Below are positions 230-30,175 of a DNA stretch of 33,289 nucleotides, piece by piece. The DNA comes from a virus (lineage: Duplodnaviria > Caudoviricetes). The stretch spans positions 1 to 33,289 of IMG/VR virus record IMGVR_UViG_3300042431_000197; one strand, 5' to 3'. Each line of letters starts with the position of its first letter. Positions within the stretch are counted from its first letter, which is position 1. The position numbers were made by a program, and so were the translations under genes. The notes beneath the pieces are model-generated. The model was not told the DNA's origin. It made no database searches and saw only the letters and a list, made by a program, of their open reading frames with translations.

Positions 230-690
230 ATTTTATGTTTTATTTTCTTTAAACCTCTATACAATACCGAGTATTCTATTCCTGTTTTCTTTGATAGGTT
301 TGCAATACTTGTGCCTTTAAAGTGTTTTACTATTTCGTTGTTTTCGTTTGTTATAACTCGACCGCATATAGCATCAACTAATAACTGCTCCCACTTTGTT
401 AAGTTCTTAATTTCGTAATTTATTAACGTGTTTTGCTCATCAATTATATTTGGGAACTCATCAACTAAAATAACTCTATTTTTTGTAAGACTTTTTTTCT
501 TACTATCTAACCAAACAGACTTAATCGTAAAATATAAGTAAGCATCATTTATTTCATCAAATTTCTTGCCACTATCATAAATCTTTAAGTAAGCATCTTG
601 TAAAATATCTTTTGCACTATCGTAATCGCCTGTAAAATTATAAGCAATTTTTAATAGTTGTGTTTGATGTTTAACAAGTTGGTCAAGCAT
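205..690 (-). CDS. Phage sigma-70/ECF-like RNA polymerase sigma factor
   Basis: Region-2-like LLKIAYNFTGDYDSAKDILQDAYLKIY and a C-terminal region-4 HTH SIANLSKKTGIEYSVLYRGLKKIK; 161 aa. Confidence 0.8.
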   Translation of the reverse strand: MLDQLVKHQTQLLKIAYNFTGDYDSAKDILQDAYLKIYDSGKKFDEINDAYLYFTIKSVWLDSKKKSLTKNRVILVDEFPNIIDEQNTLINYEIKNLTKWEQLLVDAICGRVITNENNEIVKHFKGTSIANLSKKTGIEYSVLYRGLKKIKHKIWLKDLEM

Positions 691-888
691 TTATTTTTTA
701 CGTTTTCGTGTTTGTTTTGGCTTTTGAACAATAACAATTTCTTTTTCTGATTCACTTTCAAGTGCAATAACAAAATCTTTATCGATTAATAATTTTGCTC
801 TTTCGTTTGATGTTTCAAACTCTGCTCCAACAAACATATTTTGGTTAAGTTCCTTGTCTGTATATGGTTTTATAACTTTTACTTTCAT
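691..888 (-). CDS. Hypothetical small phage protein
   Basis: 65-aa ORF with an A-rich start context that abuts the sigma gene; basic C-terminal tail. Confidence 0.75.
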   Translation of the reverse strand: MKVKVIKPYTDKELNQNMFVGAEFETSNERAKLLIDKDFVIALESESEKEIVIVQKPKQTRKRKK

Positions 889-909
889 TTTTTAATTATT
901 TGATTTAGA

Positions 910-917
910 CAAAATTA
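910..917 (-). promoter_or_regulatory. Putative Bacteroidota housekeeping -7 promoter element (TAATTTTG)
   Basis: Matches the TAnnTTTG consensus; intergenic, about 20 nt upstream of ATG 888 that leads into the sigma gene. Confidence 0.5.
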
Positions 918-941
918 GTAATTTATTTTTAATAAACAATA

Positions 942-1166
942 TTATTTTGTAAATATTTCATTATAATCAGCATCTTGACCACACCACCAAGTTTTTACAT
1001 TTTCTTTTGTTGTGTCTTCTAACCAACAGGAACGCCAATCTAAAGTCCATACGCTTCTTTTACCTATCATTTTACCATCTATAACTTTCCAAACGATATT
1101 ATTACCATCTATTGAAGAATATGTATTGTTTAAACTTAAAACTGATTTTATTATTGTATCTCTCAT
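942..1166 (-). CDS. Hypothetical protein
   Basis: 74-aa Trp-rich ORF, co-directional, A-rich leader. Confidence 0.65.
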   Translation of the reverse strand: MRDTIIKSVLSLNNTYSSIDGNNIVWKVIDGKMIGKRSVWTLDWRSCWLEDTTKENVKTWWCGQDADYNEIFTK

Positions 1167-1178
1167 TTTGTTATTTTT

Positions 1179-1448
1179 TTAATTACGAAGCATTGTAATA
1201 GGATTTATATTTTGATTCCAAAAATCTTTTTGTAATACTGGTGTTATTTCTTGTACTTTATTTTCAGTTTTTGTATTATACCCTCTTTTATTTCTAATAC
1301 TTTTAACCTGCGCTGGTGTTAAACTTAGATTGTTATCGCTTAAAAATTTGCGTATTGTTGCAAAAGAAATATTTAATTGATTTTTAATTTCTTTAATAGG
1401 CAAAGTTAATCTATTTTCTATTATAAATTCTTCTTGTTGTAGTGTCAT
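1179..1448 (-). CDS. Hypothetical protein with HTH-like N-terminus
   Basis: LPIKEIKNQLNISFATIRKFL resembles a helix-turn-helix. Confidence 0.6.
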   Translation of the reverse strand: MTLQQEEFIIENRLTLPIKEIKNQLNISFATIRKFLSDNNLSLTPAQVKSIRNKRGYNTKTENKVQEITPVLQKDFWNQNINPITMLRN

Positions 1449-1570
1449 ATTACTTTTTATTGTTATATAAACCCCAATTTTTAGGGTTTATCTTGTTGTT
1501 AAAAGTTAAATTATTTTTCTTGTTAGTGTTTTCATAATTTTGTAATACATTTTTTGTAACAATCAATTAG

Positions 1571-1777
1571 TTAGGCACAATTTATACCCAGTTCAATTAA
1601 ATCTTCTACTCTTGCTTTTCGCCAAACCTTTATATCTGGACTTTCATCTCCAACAAAGTCACAAACTGTTTTGTAAACTTCTACTTTTATTTGCCAACCA
1701 AATAAGGTTTTGCGAATACGGTATTTTCCTGTTAATCTTCTCATAATAAAACTGTGCCTAACAAAGTGTATAAGCAA
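1571..1777 (-). CDS. Hypothetical cassette-1 protein (start TTG 1777 inside attC1, or ATG 1744)
   Basis: The ORF fills the cassette exactly; its TAA stop is the TTA of the GTTAGGC core site at 1570-1576. Confidence 0.7.
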   Translation of the reverse strand: MLIHFVRHSFIMRRLTGKYRIRKTLFGWQIKVEVYKTVCDFVGDESPDIKVWRKARVEDLIELGINCA

Positions 1778-1879
1778 TAGCCGTTAGGTGTTTCAAACTA
1801 TTGCAGTTGTTAATATTAAATTTTATACCTCTAATCAAGTTTCGTGTTCGGCTACTGCTCATACACTTAGCCGTTAGCG
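1756..1879 (+). repeat. attC-like site 1
   Basis: GCCTAAC (1756-1762); arms AAGTGTATAAGCAATAGCCG (1764-1783) and CGGCTACTGCTCATACACTT (1849-1868) are 18/20 complementary; GTTAGCG (1873-1879). Confidence 0.8.
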
Positions 1880-1914
1880 ATAATGCTACAAGTAGGTTAA
1901 ATAAGAAAATATCT

Positions 1915-2775
1915 TTAAAATAATTCTGGTTGAGATATTCTAATATTAAGTCTTTTTTCTGCATATTTACATTGTTCTTCTGATATTTCACTTCCAATAT
2001 AATTTCTTTTTTCAATTATACAAGCATTTGCAGTTGTGCCGGTTCCCATAAAGCTATCATAAATCAAATCATTTTCTTTTGTATAAAGTAACAATAGCTT
2101 TCTAACTAATTCAGTTGAGTAGGTTGCCTTATTCAAATCATTGCTTCCATCATTGTTTGACGCTTCAATATAGTTATAAAAAACATCATAAAAATCTTGT
2201 CCCTTATTTGATGTAGTTGTTACCTTCTTGTTTGTGTTAAAAGTTAGGTATTCAGTTTTTCTAACAAACACAAATACAAATTCACAAATTCGTGTTAGTT
2301 TATTTTTACTTGTTGTGTTTGGTAAAGCGGTTGTTTTTTTCCAACTAATACAATCAGCAACAGTAAATTCAGTTCGTTTTATTATTTCAGCAATTAGCAA
2401 CCACATTGTTTCAACACTTTCGTTTCCGTATGAAATATTGTAAAGCACACAGCCATCTTTTTCTAAAATAGTATTATAGGCTTTAAATAATTCAATAGTC
2501 CAATCAATGTATTCATCACTTGATTTTGTGTCTAAATACTTATCGTATCGCTTATCTTGGCTATAAACACGAACACCTTTTACTATTTTGTTGCTCCAAT
2601 ATTCAATTCTACCACCAGTATTATAAGGCGGTGAAGTTATTACTGCATTTACTTTACCAGCTAATCTTTTCATAGTTAACAAGCAATCTTCATTATAAAT
2701 TTTGTTTATAAAATACGCACTATCGCTAACACTCGTTTGGCTCAATGCCTTATTTTCGTTTTTATCGTTTTTCAT
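1915..2775 (-). CDS. DNA amino-methyltransferase, beta-class N4-C/N6-A family (cassette 2)
   Basis: Catalytic motif IV TSPPY precedes SAM-binding motif I DSFMGTGTT..A and GSEIS; the first ~20 aa are encoded by attC2. ATG 2775 (GTG 2778). Confidence 0.92.
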   Translation of the reverse strand: MKNDKNENKALSQTSVSDSAYFINKIYNEDCLLTMKRLAGKVNAVITSPPYNTGGRIEYWSNKIVKGVRVYSQDKRYDKYLDTKSSDEYIDWTIELFKAYNTILEKDGCVLYNISYGNESVETMWLLIAEIIKRTEFTVADCISWKKTTALPNTTSKNKLTRICEFVFVFVRKTEYLTFNTNKKVTTTSNKGQDFYDVFYNYIEASNNDGSNDLNKATYSTELVRKLLLLYTKENDLIYDSFMGTGTTANACIIEKRNYIGSEISEEQCKYAEKRLNIRISQPELF

Positions 2776-2845
2776 CACGTTTATTTTTAATGATTAAATT
2801 TAGTTTTCATAACTCGGCACTAAGCCAAGCGAGGGGACGTTATGG
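2724..2845 (+). repeat. attC-like site 2
   Basis: CGCTAAC (2724-2730); arms CTCGTTTGGCTCAATGCC (2732-2749) and GGCACTAAGCCAAGCGAG (2816-2833) are 15/18 complementary; GTTATGG (2839-2845). Confidence 0.82.
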
Positions 2846-2851
2846 TTAATG

Positions 2852-3835
2852 CTACGTGAAGCATTCACAAGGAAATAAATCTTGTGTAGATTGTTTTAAA
2901 TAATGTTTTGCTGACTTCCAAAATTTATGACTTGATATGTGTTCATTTGCTGGAATACCTATTTCTTTCATTCTTTTAAAAGTCGGTTCAACTTCTTTTA
3001 AAAATCCAAAATTTCCAAATGAATGCCCTATTCTTTCCTCTGATAATTTAGCTCTTTCAAAAGTTTCATTATCTTCACAATATACAACGTACCAATGTTG
3101 TTGACCAGCTTTTAAACATCCTTTACAATTTGCGTGTTTCCAAACTTTATATGTTAAAGGTGGTTCAATACCAATTTCTTTAGTTGAGTTAATAGTTTTT
3201 TCTTTTCCGTCGTATTCTGTAATTTCTAAAAGATTGTGCTTTATAGCTTCTTCAATAACATCTAATGGTAATTTATGTAATTTAGATTTGTTAGCTTTGT
3301 TGTAGGTTTTTAAAAGTTCGTTAATTTTAAAATCATTATATTTTTTTATCAACTCAAAAGACCATAAAGCCAAAGGAAAATCTGTTTCAATTCCATCTTG
3401 AATAAGAATTGATTTTCTTCTTTCAACTCTATTTAATTCATCACTATCAAAACCATAATAACAGCAAACACTTTCTTTTTCTACTGATTTTAAATAATCA
3501 TAAAAAGGTTCTGTTTTTAAGGCATAAGTGCATAATATTTGTCTATTATGTGGGTTTACAAATGTTTTTCTTTCTTCACATACTTCAAATTGATTAGGAA
3601 TGTCATTTTCATTTTCAATTCCTTTTATGTTTGCAAAAGTTATCGGTAAACCTAAATAATCAGCAATTTCTTTTTTAAACCTTTTAATATCCGCATCTTC
3701 ATATCTTGGATTAATATTATGATTTAGTAAAATAACATTTTCTTTACCAAATAATTTAACCACTTCAATAGCAACTAAAGCAGATGAATGCCCTCCAGAG
3801 TAACAAACTATGTGTTTAGTATTTTTCATAAACAA
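2852..3835 (-). CDS. PP-loop (PAPS-reductase-like / adenine nucleotide alpha-hydrolase) protein with Cys cluster (cassette 3)
   Basis: N-terminal HIVCYSGGHSSA PP-loop; CTYALKTEP, YYGFDSDE..R, HANCKGCLKAG and a C-terminal CEC. Confidence 0.75.
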   Translation of the reverse strand: MFMKNTKHIVCYSGGHSSALVAIEVVKLFGKENVILLNHNINPRYEDADIKRFKKEIADYLGLPITFANIKGIENENDIPNQFEVCEERKTFVNPHNRQILCTYALKTEPFYDYLKSVEKESVCCYYGFDSDELNRVERRKSILIQDGIETDFPLALWSFELIKKYNDFKINELLKTYNKANKSKLHKLPLDVIEEAIKHNLLEITEYDGKEKTINSTKEIGIEPPLTYKVWKHANCKGCLKAGQQHWYVVYCEDNETFERAKLSEERIGHSFGNFGFLKEVEPTFKRMKEIGIPANEHISSHKFWKSAKHYLKQSTQDLFPCECFT

Positions 3836-4109
3836 CTTTTGTTTTAGGATTTAAACTTTCTAAATATTCAATAGCCCATTCTAATTTAGGATAAGACAAA
3901 TCGCATTCAGTTGAAAATGTATAAATACCATTTAAACATAATTCCTCATCTTTATAAAATTTCCATCCTTTAAATAATCCAAATATTCCATTATCAAAAT
4001 ATTGAGGATAAAATCTATTATCTTTTTCAATAATTCTGTTTTTGAAATCCGCACTAACCATAACACTCGTTTGGCTCAATGCCTTATTTTCGTTTTTATC
4101 GTTTTTCAT
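3816..4109 (-). CDS. Hypothetical protein (cassette 3), N-terminus encoded by attC3
   Basis: Starts MKNDKNENKALSQTSV, identical to the MTase N-terminus; overlaps the next gene. Confidence 0.75.
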   Translation of the reverse strand: MKNDKNENKALSQTSVMVSADFKNRIIEKDNRFYPQYFDNGIFGLFKGWKFYKDEELCLNGIYTFSTECDLSYPKLEWAIEYLESLNPKTKVVYEKY

Positions 4110-4179
4110 TACTTTTTATTTTAATGATTAAATTTAGTTTTCATAACTCGGCACTAAGCCAAGCGAGGGAACGTTATAT
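4058..4179 (+). repeat. attC-like site 3 (near-identical to site 2)
   Basis: 4061-4177 matches 2727-2843 with 5 differences in 117 bp; CCATAAC ... GTTATAT ends. Confidence 0.82.
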
Positions 4180-4180
4180 A

Positions 4181-4264
4181 AAATAAAACCCACATATCAA
4201 AAGGTCGTCGTCTTTATCAATGTGGGAATTTGTTAAAATTTTAAATGTAGCGACGACTCTACTG
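4181..4264 (-). ncRNA. Two-hairpin kissing-loop leader RNA, copy A
   Basis: Hairpin 1 GTAG-AGTCGTCG-CTAC (4262-4247); hairpin 2 CCCACAT..AAAG-ACGACGAC-CTTT..ATGTGGG (4226-4189), then a U-rich tract. Confidence 0.7.
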
Positions 4265-4267
4265 ATG

Positions 4268-4275
4268 CAAATATA
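4268..4275 (-). promoter_or_regulatory. Bacteroidota -7 promoter element TATATTTG
   Basis: TAnnTTTG consensus; the same TATATTTGCA precedes all three leader RNAs. Confidence 0.7.
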
Positions 4276-4280
4276 TAAAT

Positions 4281-4448
4281 TTATTTTAATTGTACCGCTT
4301 TATAATAATAATTTTTGTTTTTATTTAGTGTTTGGTATTCGTAAAATGTGATTTCTTTAATAAACTCTTTAGAAGTTTCTTTATGTATCGCAATTAGTTT
4401 TAATTTAGTGTTTGGGTCTAATGCGTAGGGTTGTTTATTTTTTACCAT
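4281..4448 (-). CDS. Hypothetical 55-aa protein (not in ORF track)
   Basis: MVKNKQPYALDPNTKLKLIAIHKETSKEF...; start overlaps the end of ninG and the ORF fills the gap. Confidence 0.55.
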   Translation of the reverse strand: MVKNKQPYALDPNTKLKLIAIHKETSKEFIKEITFYEYQTLNKNKNYYYKAVQLK

Positions 4449-5037
4449 ATTCTTTTATTTTAATATCATATTGTAATTTTTTAGCTATTAATTCTTCTTT
4501 AGTATATTTTTTCACTCGATTAATATCACAAATATTGTCTAAATTTGTGACATAATCTATTCCATAACGCTTAATTAAACCTTTTCGGAAATTTAATTCA
4601 TTACCATTCATAAATCTGTTACATTTTCTGCATTGTTTATGGCAATTATTTTCGTTAAATATCAATCCTGAATAAATTTCTGCTTTGTAGAAATGACCAC
4701 CATCAAATAAATCTGCGGTTGTAGTATCGCAACTTATACAAGGTTTATCGCTATCACGCAATCTTATCCACTTTTGAAACGATTTTCTTGCTTCTTGCTT
4801 ATATTCTCCTATTGTTTTAAGTTTTGCTCTTAAATCGCTTTTAAATGCTTTTGCTTTATCTGACTTAACTTTTAAGTTTATTTTATTAAAAACAACTTTT
4901 CCAGCATCTGAGTTAAATAAGAAATCAGATAAGCAGGAACTGCATAAACCAAACGTTCTATATAAAGTCATTTTTCCACAACCTTTAACCATTCGTGCCT
5001 TATTGATTCCTTTGCAGGGTTTTTCTTTTATATCCAT
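4435..5037 (-). CDS. ninG: NinG/Rap-like recombination endonuclease
   Basis: FQKWIRLRD..PCISC, DGGHF, FNENNCHKQCRKCN, and FRKGLIKRYG match the lambda NinG family pattern. Confidence 0.85.
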   Translation of the reverse strand: MDIKEKPCKGINKARMVKGCGKMTLYRTFGLCSSCLSDFLFNSDAGKVVFNKINLKVKSDKAKAFKSDLRAKLKTIGEYKQEARKSFQKWIRLRDSDKPCISCDTTTADLFDGGHFYKAEIYSGLIFNENNCHKQCRKCNRFMNGNELNFRKGLIKRYGIDYVTNLDNICDINRVKKYTKEELIAKKLQYDIKIKEYGKK

Positions 5038-5879
5038 TCTGTATTTATATTATTATTATCTGTTTCGTATGGCAACCAATCTTTGTTTACATCAAAATTA
5101 ATAGGCTCAAAAGGTATATTTCTTGAGTATTCACATTTTGCAGTTGTTATATTATCGTTTTTTTCTATAAATACAACAGTTTCAGCTTTCTTTAATACAC
5201 TACTTCCAACGTGTCCTACTGGTTTTGATGTTCCAAAATTCTTATGCAATATTCCTGTGCAGTGCATATTACCTTTTGCAGTCCATTGTAGCAATTTTTC
5301 AGTTAAACCAGTTGATTGTTCTAAACTATTAAAGTCTGTTACCAAATCTACATATCCATCAATCGACATTAAACCAATATTATTTTTAAACTCGCTTTCG
5401 TAAACTATCCAATCAATAAAATCAAATCGTTCTTTTGGTGTGTATTGTCTTAAGCAAAATGTTTTATAAAATTCATAGTTTCCACCTATCATTTCTAAAA
5501 CTCTTCTTTGAACTCTTTGCGTATGAAAAGATGATTGTTCTGTATCGAACGAAATTACAAATTTATTTTGAGTATTATGCCCTTTTATTGATGGATTTAA
5601 TATGTTTGATTTACCACCAATATAACCAGCTTCAATCATAGATTTAAAAAATGTTTTTCTTGACTTTGATGCTCCTACTATACAACTGAAATCTCCATAA
5701 CTTCCAAATGGTATTGGATACATTGTGTTTTTATATTCACTTTCACGAATTGAAATAGCTATTGGTTGTTGTTTAATTTCTTCGCTTGGGTCAATTAAAG
5801 CTTCTTTAAATATTTTACTAAAATCAATTTCATTTAAAACTATTTCAGTTGTTTCTGGTATTATAATTTTTTCAAACAT
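5028..5879 (-). CDS. RecA-like P-loop ATPase, putative replicative helicase domain
   Basis: Variant Walker A IVGASKSRKT, FDTEQ, Walker B-like MSIDG, ILHKN..GHVGS; located in the replication module. Confidence 0.7.
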   Translation of the reverse strand: MFEKIIIPETTEIVLNEIDFSKIFKEALIDPSEEIKQQPIAISIRESEYKNTMYPIPFGSYGDFSCIVGASKSRKTFFKSMIEAGYIGGKSNILNPSIKGHNTQNKFVISFDTEQSSFHTQRVQRRVLEMIGGNYEFYKTFCLRQYTPKERFDFIDWIVYESEFKNNIGLMSIDGYVDLVTDFNSLEQSTGLTEKLLQWTAKGNMHCTGILHKNFGTSKPVGHVGSSVLKKAETVVFIEKNDNITTAKCEYSRNIPFEPINFDVNKDWLPYETDNNNINTEWI

Positions 5880-6378
5880 TTTTATAAGTATTTAACGCAA
5901 GTGTTATTGTAGCGTTTAAGTTATTGTAAATATTATCTTCACTCCAAAGGTCGCAAACTTCTAAAAACTCATTTGCATCTATTTTATTGCAAATATCGGT
6001 ATTATATTTAAAATTTTCTTTTAAGTCAAATTTTGACATCATACTCCAAGTATCTTTTAAACCTTTGTTTTCAAAATAATTTTTTATCTCTAATACATTT
6101 GCCTCTTTTCTAAACTCGTTGTATAAACCATCTAAAGGCATTTTAAGTATTTTATTTACATTAGATTGTGCAAGGTCAAAATTTCTTACTATTCGCATTT
6201 GAGTAATAAAATTCATAATGTATAATTTTGCAAATAGTTTGTTTTCTTGTACTTCGGTTTTGTTTACGTTGTTTATAAATTCAATTATAGAATTTAAAGC
6301 ATCGGCATCAGTTCCGTTTGGTTTATTTTGTTTTGATATTGTAAAACCTAATCTTTTAATTGCATCTGATATTTTCAT
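5872..6378 (-). CDS. Hypothetical protein (replication module)
   Basis: 168-aa ORF overlapping both neighbours. Confidence 0.75.
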   Translation of the reverse strand: MKISDAIKRLGFTISKQNKPNGTDADALNSIIEFINNVNKTEVQENKLFAKLYIMNFITQMRIVRNFDLAQSNVNKILKMPLDGLYNEFRKEANVLEIKNYFENKGLKDTWSMMSKFDLKENFKYNTDICNKIDANEFLEVCDLWSEDNIYNNLNATITLALNTYKNV

Positions 6379-7306: not shown

Positions 7307-7393
7307 AAAAAAATTAATGCCCTACTACAAGCGGTGGAAGTCGCAAGTAATAAGGCATTTGTAATATTTTTATAAGTAGCTTCCACTCTACAT
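7307..7393 (-). ncRNA. Two-hairpin kissing-loop leader RNA, copy B
   Basis: Hairpin 1 GTAG-AGTGGAAG-CTAC (7391-7376); hairpin 2 AATGCCTTATTACTTGCG-ACTTCCAC-CGCTTGTAGTAGGGCATT (7359-7316), then a U tract. Confidence 0.75.
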
Positions 7394-29648: not shown

Positions 29649-30175
29649 ATCTTTAAACTTTGTTTCATTAATTTTTCTAAATCTAACCCGTAGGCTTCAA
29701 TAACTTCATCTGGTAATCTTTGAAATCCTGCCTCAAATGGTTTACTAAAAAATAAACTTGGCTTTATTCCTTTTTGATATATTGAACGTGTGATTAAAAA
29801 TGCGGTATTCTCATAACTCATAAACTTTCCGCTTTCTCTATCTTTAAATTGAAAACGTCTTGCTTTAACCCACTCTAAAATACCACTTGTTAAACCGCCT
29901 TTTTTACCTGTGCCACTTCCAAACTTAAAAGGACTATTTGGCGCTTTTGCCGAACTACTTTTACCTTTAACTCCTTTGTCTTGAAACTCTCCGTAATCTT
30001 CCATTTCAAAGTAAATACCTATTGAGTTTTTACCTACAAATGAATCACCTTTAATGGAATTATAAAGTTTCTTTTTTACATTTTTATCAGTTCGTGTTAA
30101 GTTGCTTTTACTTTGTTGAACTACATACTTTGTAAATTTAGAAAGTGTTTTATTTAATTCATTATTAGCATCCAT
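29645..30175 (-). CDS. Putative neck/tail-completion protein
   Basis: Basic protein with YGEFQDKG, ILEWVK and SIYQKGIKP..FF motifs; likely start at MDANNEL. Confidence 0.6.
   Translation of the reverse strand: MDANNELNKTLSKFTKYVVQQSKSNLTRTDKNVKKKLYNSIKGDSFVGKNSIGIYFEMEDYGEFQDKGVKGKSSSAKAPNSPFKFGSGTGKKGGLTSGILEWVKARRFQFKDRESGKFMSYENTAFLITRSIYQKGIKPSLFFSKPFEAGFQRLPDEVIEAYGLDLEKLMKQSLKI

Follow-up and report, generated by a model that had tools for sequence, protein, structure and literature searches.

Positions 1570-4176 of a 33,289-nucleotide stretch of the virus record IMGVR_UViG_3300042431_000197 (Caudoviricetes; the whole stretch is called the window from here on) hold three gene cassettes in tandem, each bounded by a hairpin site and inserted at a fixed docking site, or dock, that lacks a hairpin of its own. 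We are highly confident that this array is real and that it works like the cassette array of an integron. As to its operation, the array is probably run by a borrowed, short Xer-type tyrosine recombinase, with a contribution of homologous recombination; the enzyme is likely borrowed because the window genome has no recombinase.

The mechanism that we propose is that a short Xer-type recombinase, provided by another element in the infected cell, loads and unloads the three cassettes at the dock. Each cassette would pass through a circle, in which the hairpin stem may extend by about 10 bp, and the substrate would be the folded minus strand, as for the attC sites of integrons. New cassettes would enter at the dock, on the left. 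Every hairpin lies before its own antisense gene, to which it can supply the start codon, and the predicted promoter is found far from the dock. The likely benefit for the phage would be a stock of DNA-modification genes that can be altered to counter host restriction.

Three cassettes at a hairpin-free dock

An earlier reading of this DNA, made from the sequence alone, had described three hairpin sites and three cassettes of 303, 966 and 1334 bp, and its coordinates and sequences all proved correct. On the plus strand the cassettes, delimited by flank pairing, occupy 1571-1873, 1874-2839 and 2840-4173, the third one containing two genes. The hairpin sites (1759-1876, 2727-2842 and 4061-4176, plus strand) read TAAC, arm, loop, arm, bulge and G|TTA, with a bulge of 3 nt in site 1 and of 4 nt in sites 2 and 3. 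Site 2 was found by both the hairpin detector and the covariance model described below, and it shares 89% identity with site 3 across 158 nt. This likeness, the opposite strand of the cargo genes and the second gene of cassette 3 go beyond the earlier reading. The last crossover point, G|TT, lies in site 3 at 4173|4174. The dock (1551-1573, plus strand) has its crossover point, also G|TT, at 1570|1571, and no hairpin precedes it.

That reading had also stated that cassette ends pair across each cassette. Indeed, when the start of every cassette is compared with the reverse complement of that cassette's end, 13 bases out of 14 agree, whereas the flanks within a site match at only 8, 10 and 6 of the first 14 bases in sites 1, 2 and 3. 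Because flanks pair across cassettes and not within sites, a crossover at the core is needed. When the 4075 pairs of GTTA and TAAC separated by 100-3000 bp in the window were compared, three matched at nine of the next ten bases, none scored higher, and all three were the cassettes. A custom covariance model, as the earlier reading had suggested, scored well at the three sites only (64-99 bits; the next match in the window reached 16), a result that is circular in that the sites were in the training set. The hairpin detector gave no site in five Markov-simulated 33-kb controls, and an Rfam scan of positions 1400-4400 matched no family, a chance snoRNA match being under the cut-off.

Folding favored the minus strand over the plus strand in all three sites and in all three predicted circle junctions. 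When a cassette was closed as a circle in silico, its stem became longer and gained 8-10 kcal/mol on the minus strand. Read on the plus strand, the array divides into three units, all of them complete and inserted at a single point that lacks a hairpin; we prefer this reading because the opposite one leaves a truncated unit.

The absence of a tyrosine recombinase, noticed from the sequence, was upheld by every search of the window genome: none of its 52 open reading frames (ORFs) had such a match in PHROGs, the six-frame search with PF00589 gave no match, and a profile built from 99 cassette-linked recombinases reached a best E value of 1.6, which leaves no recombinase remnant either. With three chained sites and no recombinase, the array has the layout of a CALIN (cluster of attC sites lacking integron-integrases), in which two or more tandem sites have no integrase nearby.

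Variation of the array was examined in 80 loci retrieved through the neighboring NinG gene and in sequencing runs that contain the window stretch. Twenty-two of the 24 runs listed are lake water or unspecified metagenomes of one study; eight of the 24, all from lake water, were examined, as contigs from which assembly drops rare forms. In agreement with the comparison of related phages that the sequence-only reading had called for, close relatives retain the flanks and differ in the cassettes that lie between them, with joints at G|TT (loci L008, L009, L011 and L012, and runs X7 and X8). The closest NinG loci diverge from the window at 1573, 2837 and 4170-4172. Between the same two flanks, L012 carries three other cassettes (322, 801 and 330 bp), L011 carries a 557-bp cassette followed by cassette 3 (1334 bp, 99.55% identity, also in last position), and L008 and L009 carry a single cassette of 402 bp. 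One further first cassette is found in X7 and X8, and the same dock junction is retained with different first cassettes in L008, L011, L012, X7 and X8. Altogether the dock hosts five different first cassettes, its flanks are 95-98% identical, and only GTTA is common to the dock and the incoming DNA. On the right flank, after site 3, three different hairpins are found in relatives; hairpins other than that of the window lie there in X6 and X8.

Individual cassettes also change their surroundings. The last cassette of L012 (330 bp) lies behind another left flank in L001, and the 557-bp cassette of L011 is inserted at another dock in L253. In four of four related loci other hairpins precede the gene of cassette 1, which still begins at the identical G|TT, and L336 shows the like for cassette 3, again with a different hairpin; three distant homologs of cassette 3 have no detected site. 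Both comparisons in which a cassette is shared have it in last position, as would be expected if additions occur at the left, in a sample of two.

The dock adjoins a small gene of about 65 amino acids. In the window only its truncated start remains (14 codons, 1506-1550, minus strand), 19 nt from the dock; the gene is whole in L008 and L011, and it occupies the place where other phages have a recombinase. Its product is presumably ribbon-helix-helix-like and possibly DNA-binding, with a weak match to DUF6290 that falls below the Pfam cut-off. The position of the dock appears to be conserved, as homologs of this gene head arrays in five loci (L020, L025, L083, L263 and L336). L012 shares with the window the same truncated gene and not a single cassette.

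The hairpin family and its linked recombinases

Alignment of 31 sites revealed a common structure: TAACA, an interrupted stem of 13 pairs, a variable loop, and a bulge of 3-4 nt before CGTT. The bulge beside GTT is present in 227 of 230 phage sites, found by a detector that allowed only 3-5 nt. In those 230 sites, the flank of the cassette itself was found upstream 189 times, compared with 10.1 for shuffled flanks, and 123 of 190 phage cassettes start exactly at the previous detected site. Site 1 of the window is 92% identical to a hairpin in L172, a phage locus that bears a recombinase.

In 76 of 183 phage cassettes the gene starts inside the hairpin, as judged by the longest-ORF rule, and hairpin arms encode recurring N-terminal peptides. 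Promoters within the hairpins were also considered and rejected, as TAnnTTTG occurred on the gene strand in 11 of 207 hairpins and 34 times on the other strand. Gene starts and recurring peptides are what one would expect if the hairpins were RNA or translation-start elements, or else substrates of HUH-type transposases, with no tyrosine recombination involved. We regard this explanation as very improbable: pairing across sites requires a crossover at the core, the hairpins matched no Rfam family, and other phages present a tyrosine recombinase at a fixed distance from the dock.

The prophage-like contig L093 carries such a recombinase, 267 amino acids long, next to a cassette. IMG/VR contains at least 90 relatives; of the 80 best matches, which were taken for analysis, 76 had a recognizable ORF and 54 had 1.5 kb or more of upstream sequence. 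Forty-nine of these 54 loci have an opposite-strand hairpin no farther than 2.5 kb upstream, and this quadrant accounts for 224 of 234 sites. The largest arrays have 12 detected sites in 6 kb. Thirty-two distinct hairpin-free docks lie beside the phage recombinase; 31 are located 37-56 nt before its start codon, and they share an AT-rich consensus. Four of five recombinase phages checked, one of them a provirus, also encode a long integrase.

Among 61 genomes that belong to the same genus as a Flavobacterium metagenome-assembled genome (MAG), at least 28 encode a relative of about 347 amino acids (longer in two cases), and 30 loci were taken. The earlier reading had proposed to look in Bacteroidota genomes for the same sites near an IntI-like gene: hairpins of the same kind lie behind the host enzyme in 15 of 20 host regions, and the enzyme is not an IntI. 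Phage and host enzymes score 146-219 bits on TIGR02249, whose cut-off is 265, and both lack the IntI insertion (31 residues, compared with 79 in the Vibrio cholerae IntI4, PDB 2a3v, used as a reference for insertion length). Alignment with the IntI of phage M16-3 leaves gaps of 28 and about 13 columns in the candidate enzymes. The best profile for both enzymes is NF040815, of the archaeal XerA type, with 185-187 bits for the phage enzyme, under the cut-off of 220. In a quick tree, with a thin outgroup and long branches, phage and host enzymes group together, apart from three XerC/D proteins and one IntI (SH-aLRT 98).

The cargo of these arrays differs in orientation between phages and hosts. 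All three window cassettes carry their genes on the strand opposite to the TAAC-hairpin-GTT reading. In recombinase phages, 183 of 187 cassettes are antisense, none is sense and four lack an ORF, and the 16 cassettes of the NinG set are all antisense; as a consequence, each hairpin lies before its own gene. Host cassettes (n = 99) are sense in 81 cases and antisense in 10, with eight lacking an ORF. Among 89 cargo proteins of at least 94 amino acids (90 listed, minus one duplicate), 14 were DNA methyltransferases, three were PAPS-reductase-like and one was Mom-like. None of 90 host cargo proteins matched any of 215 phage cargo proteins. Hairpins at least 85% identical to one from a recombinase phage made up 8 of 49 from phages retrieved by other genes; 2 of 104 host hairpins reached the same identity to any phage hairpin.

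Arrays that lack an enzyme are not rare, as the complete records G067, G075, G077 and G078 carry sites and have no PF00589 match. Both short and long sites of phages P12002L, Freya, Danklef and Leef escaped the covariance model. Distantly related recombinases are encoded by the cultured phages Leef, Ingeline, Freya and Danklef. Isolates of Freya and of Danklef differ in size; no cassettes were assigned to these differences, and the array is the same in Danklef_1 and Danklef_5.

Competing explanations and relation to known systems

Several observations weigh against the proposed mechanism. No empty site was found among 11 left-flank and six right-flank pattern matches in IMG/VR, eight and one of which were unrelated contexts, and no junction of an excised circle of 303, 966 or 1334 bp appeared where the contigs of the eight runs cover the array; neither product foreseen by the sequence-only reading was seen within these sets. 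Gain and loss boundaries fall at G|TT in L001, L008, L009, L011, L012, X7 and X8, and some others at this locus do not. A contig of run X3 lacks exactly 1334 nt, with its joint in hairpins 2 and 3, inside the initial 49 nt over which they are identical. On account of this identity the joint was rejected as proof of site-specific excision; it fits homologous recombination or assembly. L010 lacks the array and its flanks and is joined at microhomology, and in L249 and L250 the far flank of the cassette 1 gene fails to pair with the start. On a matrix of phage-recombinase docks (training range, 11.5-24.6), the window dock scores -0.1 and ranks 102 among 1611 GTT positions, or 58 when one extra base is allowed. 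It keeps a few consensus positions, including the invariant A eight bases before G. The matrix score led us to discard the window dock as a standard phage attI, and it speaks against a simple story of a lost integrase. On the enzyme side, five of 54 recombinase loci have no nearby site, none of the 80 recombinase-bearing loci contains a whole cassette of the window lineage, and ten contigs, most of them sharing window genes, gave no PF00589 match (four are at least 90% complete). Finally, covariation at 12 of 13 stem pairs and the strand bias are partly circular, given that self-pairing was the criterion by which sites were picked; the flank test does not depend on this criterion.

Some of these facts would suit a different history, in which the array is a relic of ancestral site-specific recombination and its present variety arises by homologous or microhomology recombination with other phages, for which the window phage would use Erf, NinB and NinG proteins that it encodes itself. 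Genes for an Erf-like protein, NinB and NinG are near the array (PHROGs scan), the X3 joint falls within near-identical hairpins, the last hairpin of L011 mixes variants of sites 2 and 3, L010 shows gain or loss of a block at microhomology, hybrid cassettes exist, and the dock fits poorly. However, in genomes with 95-98% identical flanks, unrelated cassettes begin precisely at the G|TT of a hairpin-free dock, which has only GTTA in common with the incoming DNA, and the window and L012 combine the same truncated neighbor gene with different cassettes throughout. We therefore consider a mere relic improbable. Homologous recombination is, nonetheless, also reshaping the array. On a larger scale, the intergenic segment 1442-1520 recurs at 84-94% identity in eight more distant NinG loci and is joined straight to 4278 in L010, and on these grounds the complete platform of cassettes may have been gained or lost in one piece.

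If the enzyme comes from elsewhere, its source must be asked for. One candidate is the chromosomal recombinase of the host, of about 347 amino acids, which might accept the phage dock as a secondary one. The host takes part in every infection, its enzyme is encoded by roughly half of the genomes sampled and has hairpins of the same kind behind it, two host hairpins are near-identical to phage hairpins, and the host array of L232 holds an antisense cassette with a phage-type exoribonuclease. Host and phage cargo, however, hardly overlap and have opposite orientations, and no host hairpin matched any of the three window hairpins while site 1 closely resembles the hairpin of a recombinase phage. 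We find the host enzyme somewhat unlikely as the working one, on a small host sample. Judging from cargo and hairpin sequences and from the long integrases of recombinase phages, a resident or co-infecting temperate phage that would provide both enzyme and cassettes is moderately preferred as the donor over a host chromosomal copy. The sequence-only reading had proposed an IntI-like recombinase encoded by the host or by a co-infecting element; the outside origin stands, and the candidates found are not IntI.

The explanation to which we give the least credence is that the sites are ordinary attC and that a classical integron integrase moves the cassettes. Both systems share the G|TT core and the folded-strand logic, and the accessible text of PMC9892861 (Qi et al. 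2023) reports that IntI1 recombined five of six phage sites. The single failure in that report, P12002L_attC1, is a hairpin of the window family. Moreover, the linked enzymes do not have the catalytic-domain insertion that, in the part of PMC8138268 available, is the hallmark of integron integrases. In phage M16-3 the classical sites all escaped the covariance model, although the detector gave one borderline match there, and the sole complete Bacteroidetes integron named in the IntegronFinder 2.0 text available belongs to Salinibacter. The earlier reading had thus identified the G|TT crossover footprint correctly, and exchange does occur at G|TT; its assignment to IntI and attC did not hold, given sites that are not classical attC and inverted cargo.

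The likeness to integrons includes tandem cassettes, crossover at G|TT, better folding of one strand and a hairpin-free dock (PMC8618304, as far as accessible). In recombinase-bearing phages, a gene points away from the dock, as in integrons. The window array has G|TT-bounded cassettes with an inverse core match, and imperfect hairpins of which one strand folds better. It has no IntI in the element, no IntI insertion in the linked enzymes, no classical attC geometry and no same-strand cargo read from an attI promoter; the predicted promoter lies at the far end and start codons probably lie in hairpins. On these four tested features, the array is not a member of the IntI/attC family. Classical attC sites carry single extrahelical bases, whereas the window family has a bulge of 3-4 nt next to GTT and a conserved T opposite G. 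Compared with the arrays of the 267-aa recombinase, the window has the bulged hairpin and the antisense cargo without the consensus dock.

The phage enzyme finds its best profile and structure-sequence matches among archaeal XerA-type and XerC/D recombinases (NF040815; PDB 5hxy and 4a8e), with which it shares a simple two-domain architecture. It differs from them in scoring under the cut-off and in being tied to cassette arrays rather than to dif sites, for which no search was made. A further likeness is found with off-target insertion, where cassettes enter a site that is not the attI of the enzyme, acting from elsewhere (PMC8618304, accessible part). Similar in this respect are attG sites. 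The window dock differs in being used repeatedly, next to a small gene and at a position conserved across several phage lineages, and is more like a maintained dock than a target hit once.

Phage arrays of this sort have been reported before. The accessible text of PMC9892861 describes 17 CALINs in 10,705 genomes, that is, integrase-less arrays in lytic phages, often with DNA methyltransferases; their sites are treated as classical attC, and two are assigned to Polaribacter phage P12002L, in which our detector finds six more. P12002L_attC1, at 30008, closes an antisense methylase cassette with paired flanks, and the start flank agrees with that of window cassette 1 over 13 bases. This site shares with the window sites the core, the bulge before GTT and the antisense methylase. 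For these CALINs, the same text does not describe a partner recombinase, a fixed dock, inverted cargo or exchange among relatives. Neither the site family nor the enzyme nor the inverted design was described in the literature searched, which mostly excluded subscription papers, and the accessible portions of PMC13616975, PMC8776804, PMC10100655 and PMC8464911 contain no description of the hairpin family.

If the link with the enzyme holds, integron-style shuffling works without a protein insertion thought essential, and would do so both in a phylum regarded as nearly devoid of integrons and within the viruses of that phylum. Enzyme-free phages with a reusable dock would then imply cassette traffic between phages in one cell. 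A broader proposition, to which we give slightly less than even credence, is that Bacteroidota phages run an integron-like gene economy of their own: temperate phages would carry recombinase and dock, enzyme-free lytic phages, the window phage among them, would keep the dock and freeload, and ordinary phage genes would become cassettes by in-frame fusion to a hairpin that supplies the start codon. If the enzyme link holds, many flavobacterial phages in culture that are classed as temperate on account of an 'integrase' may in fact have an enzyme for cassettes; PMC8776804 takes the integrases of Leef, Ingeline, Freya and Danklef as signs of temperate life (the words 'integron' and 'cassette' have no occurrence in its accessible text).

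Cargo, leader and genome context

All cargo genes of the window are on the minus strand. Cassette 1 encodes a protein of 57 amino acids with no family (1571-1744), whose stop codon is the TAA of the crossover core. Cassette 2 encodes an N6/N4 DNA methyltransferase of 286 amino acids (1915-2775; PF01555, E = 1e-36; phrog_67). In cassette 3, a PAPS-reductase-like protein of 325 amino acids (2852-3829; phrog_424, E = 2e-23), for which a function in DNA modification is possible, is overlapped by a 97-aa gene of no family (3816-4109) that begins inside hairpin 3.

The methylase frame opens inside hairpin 2 and contains no in-frame ATG from the hairpin loop to residue 36. Unfused homologs start with MEINKIY where the cassette 2 protein has a 23-residue leader encoded by the hairpin arm, and L263 has the same methylase core behind a different hairpin-encoded leader, the same end flanks as cassette 2 being found there with another hairpin. 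For these reasons, the start codon is likely inside hairpin 2, probably in the loop. The gene body also occurs in L253, at 93% identity, in another cassette frame and with its own start; in most other close homologs no cassette frame was detected. The same methylase thus occurs without a cassette frame, within one frame where it keeps its own start, and fused to a hairpin in two forms, a series that offers a handle on cassette origin. If the hairpin-fusion reading is true, cassette birth, an open question for integrons, would become directly traceable.

A predicted promoter and leader (4180-4275, minus strand) point into the cargo genes, with TATATTTG at 4268-4275, which we take to be a promoter element of the Bacteroidetes -7 type. 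The leader contains a terminator-like hairpin (4189-4226) and an alternative pairing at 4247-4262, folds that are weak on their own (z of -1.3 and -2.3), and the latter copy has no Rfam match. Related leaders show compensatory changes, as judged by eye, and several are directly followed by ATG; from this conservation, the array seems to sit in a gene's place under a regulated promoter. A second copy of promoter and leader is found at 7376-7391, on the minus strand, before a 259-aa DUF7833 gene, with compensatory changes relative to the copy at 4247-4262 and in related phages. Twin promoter-leaders of this kind resemble the premature-termination control by antisense RNA of P1 and P4.

The window record (33.3 kb, 29% G+C) has essentially all its genes on the minus strand, among them those for terminase, portal, tail, endolysin, Erf, NinB and NinG (PHROGs). 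Its terminal repeats are 171 nt long with one mismatch; CheckV completeness is 100%, and the IMG/VR class is 'linear'. The host is probably a Flavobacterium, since the hairpin of sites 2 and 3 recurs in the prophage-like contig of the Flavobacterium MAG and the window region matches cultured Flavobacterium and Cellulophaga phages.

Additional arrays were observed in related genomes. P12002L (L337) has seven such hairpins at 29228-40050, around methylase and Mom-like genes and near NinG, and no recombinase. Flavobacterium phage mumin6-1, of a cultured Baltic phage group, carries a chained array of four sites with antisense cargo (L081, 8532-9805), and its hairpins were detected independently of the match that retrieved the locus. 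A three-site array is present in Cellulophaga phage phi18:3 (L082, 3253-6764), whose first site is 76% identical to window site 1; a 428-aa recombinase beside it is of another type and was discarded. L189 contains two facing arrays on opposite strands (542-3366 and 3700-5948) with near-identical ends, possibly an inversion or an assembly effect. In L088 and L091 (G002:C49), recombinase matches have internal TGA stops within a MAG, which suggests another genetic code.

Host arrays presented features of their own. Cassettes of 347-527 bp recur several times per array in L236 and L239, many of them without an ORF. The exoribonuclease cassette of L232 (11022-11570; G022:C12) encodes a phage-type 3'-5' enzyme (PF16473, phrog_2259). 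In L246 (1421-2505; G037:C21) the first cassette behind the host recombinase, antisense and with paired flanks, encodes Erm(F) (NF012223, over the cut-off), and the unit that follows encodes an APH(3') phosphotransferase. With Erm(F) as the first cassette of one host array, the system may matter for resistance surveillance.

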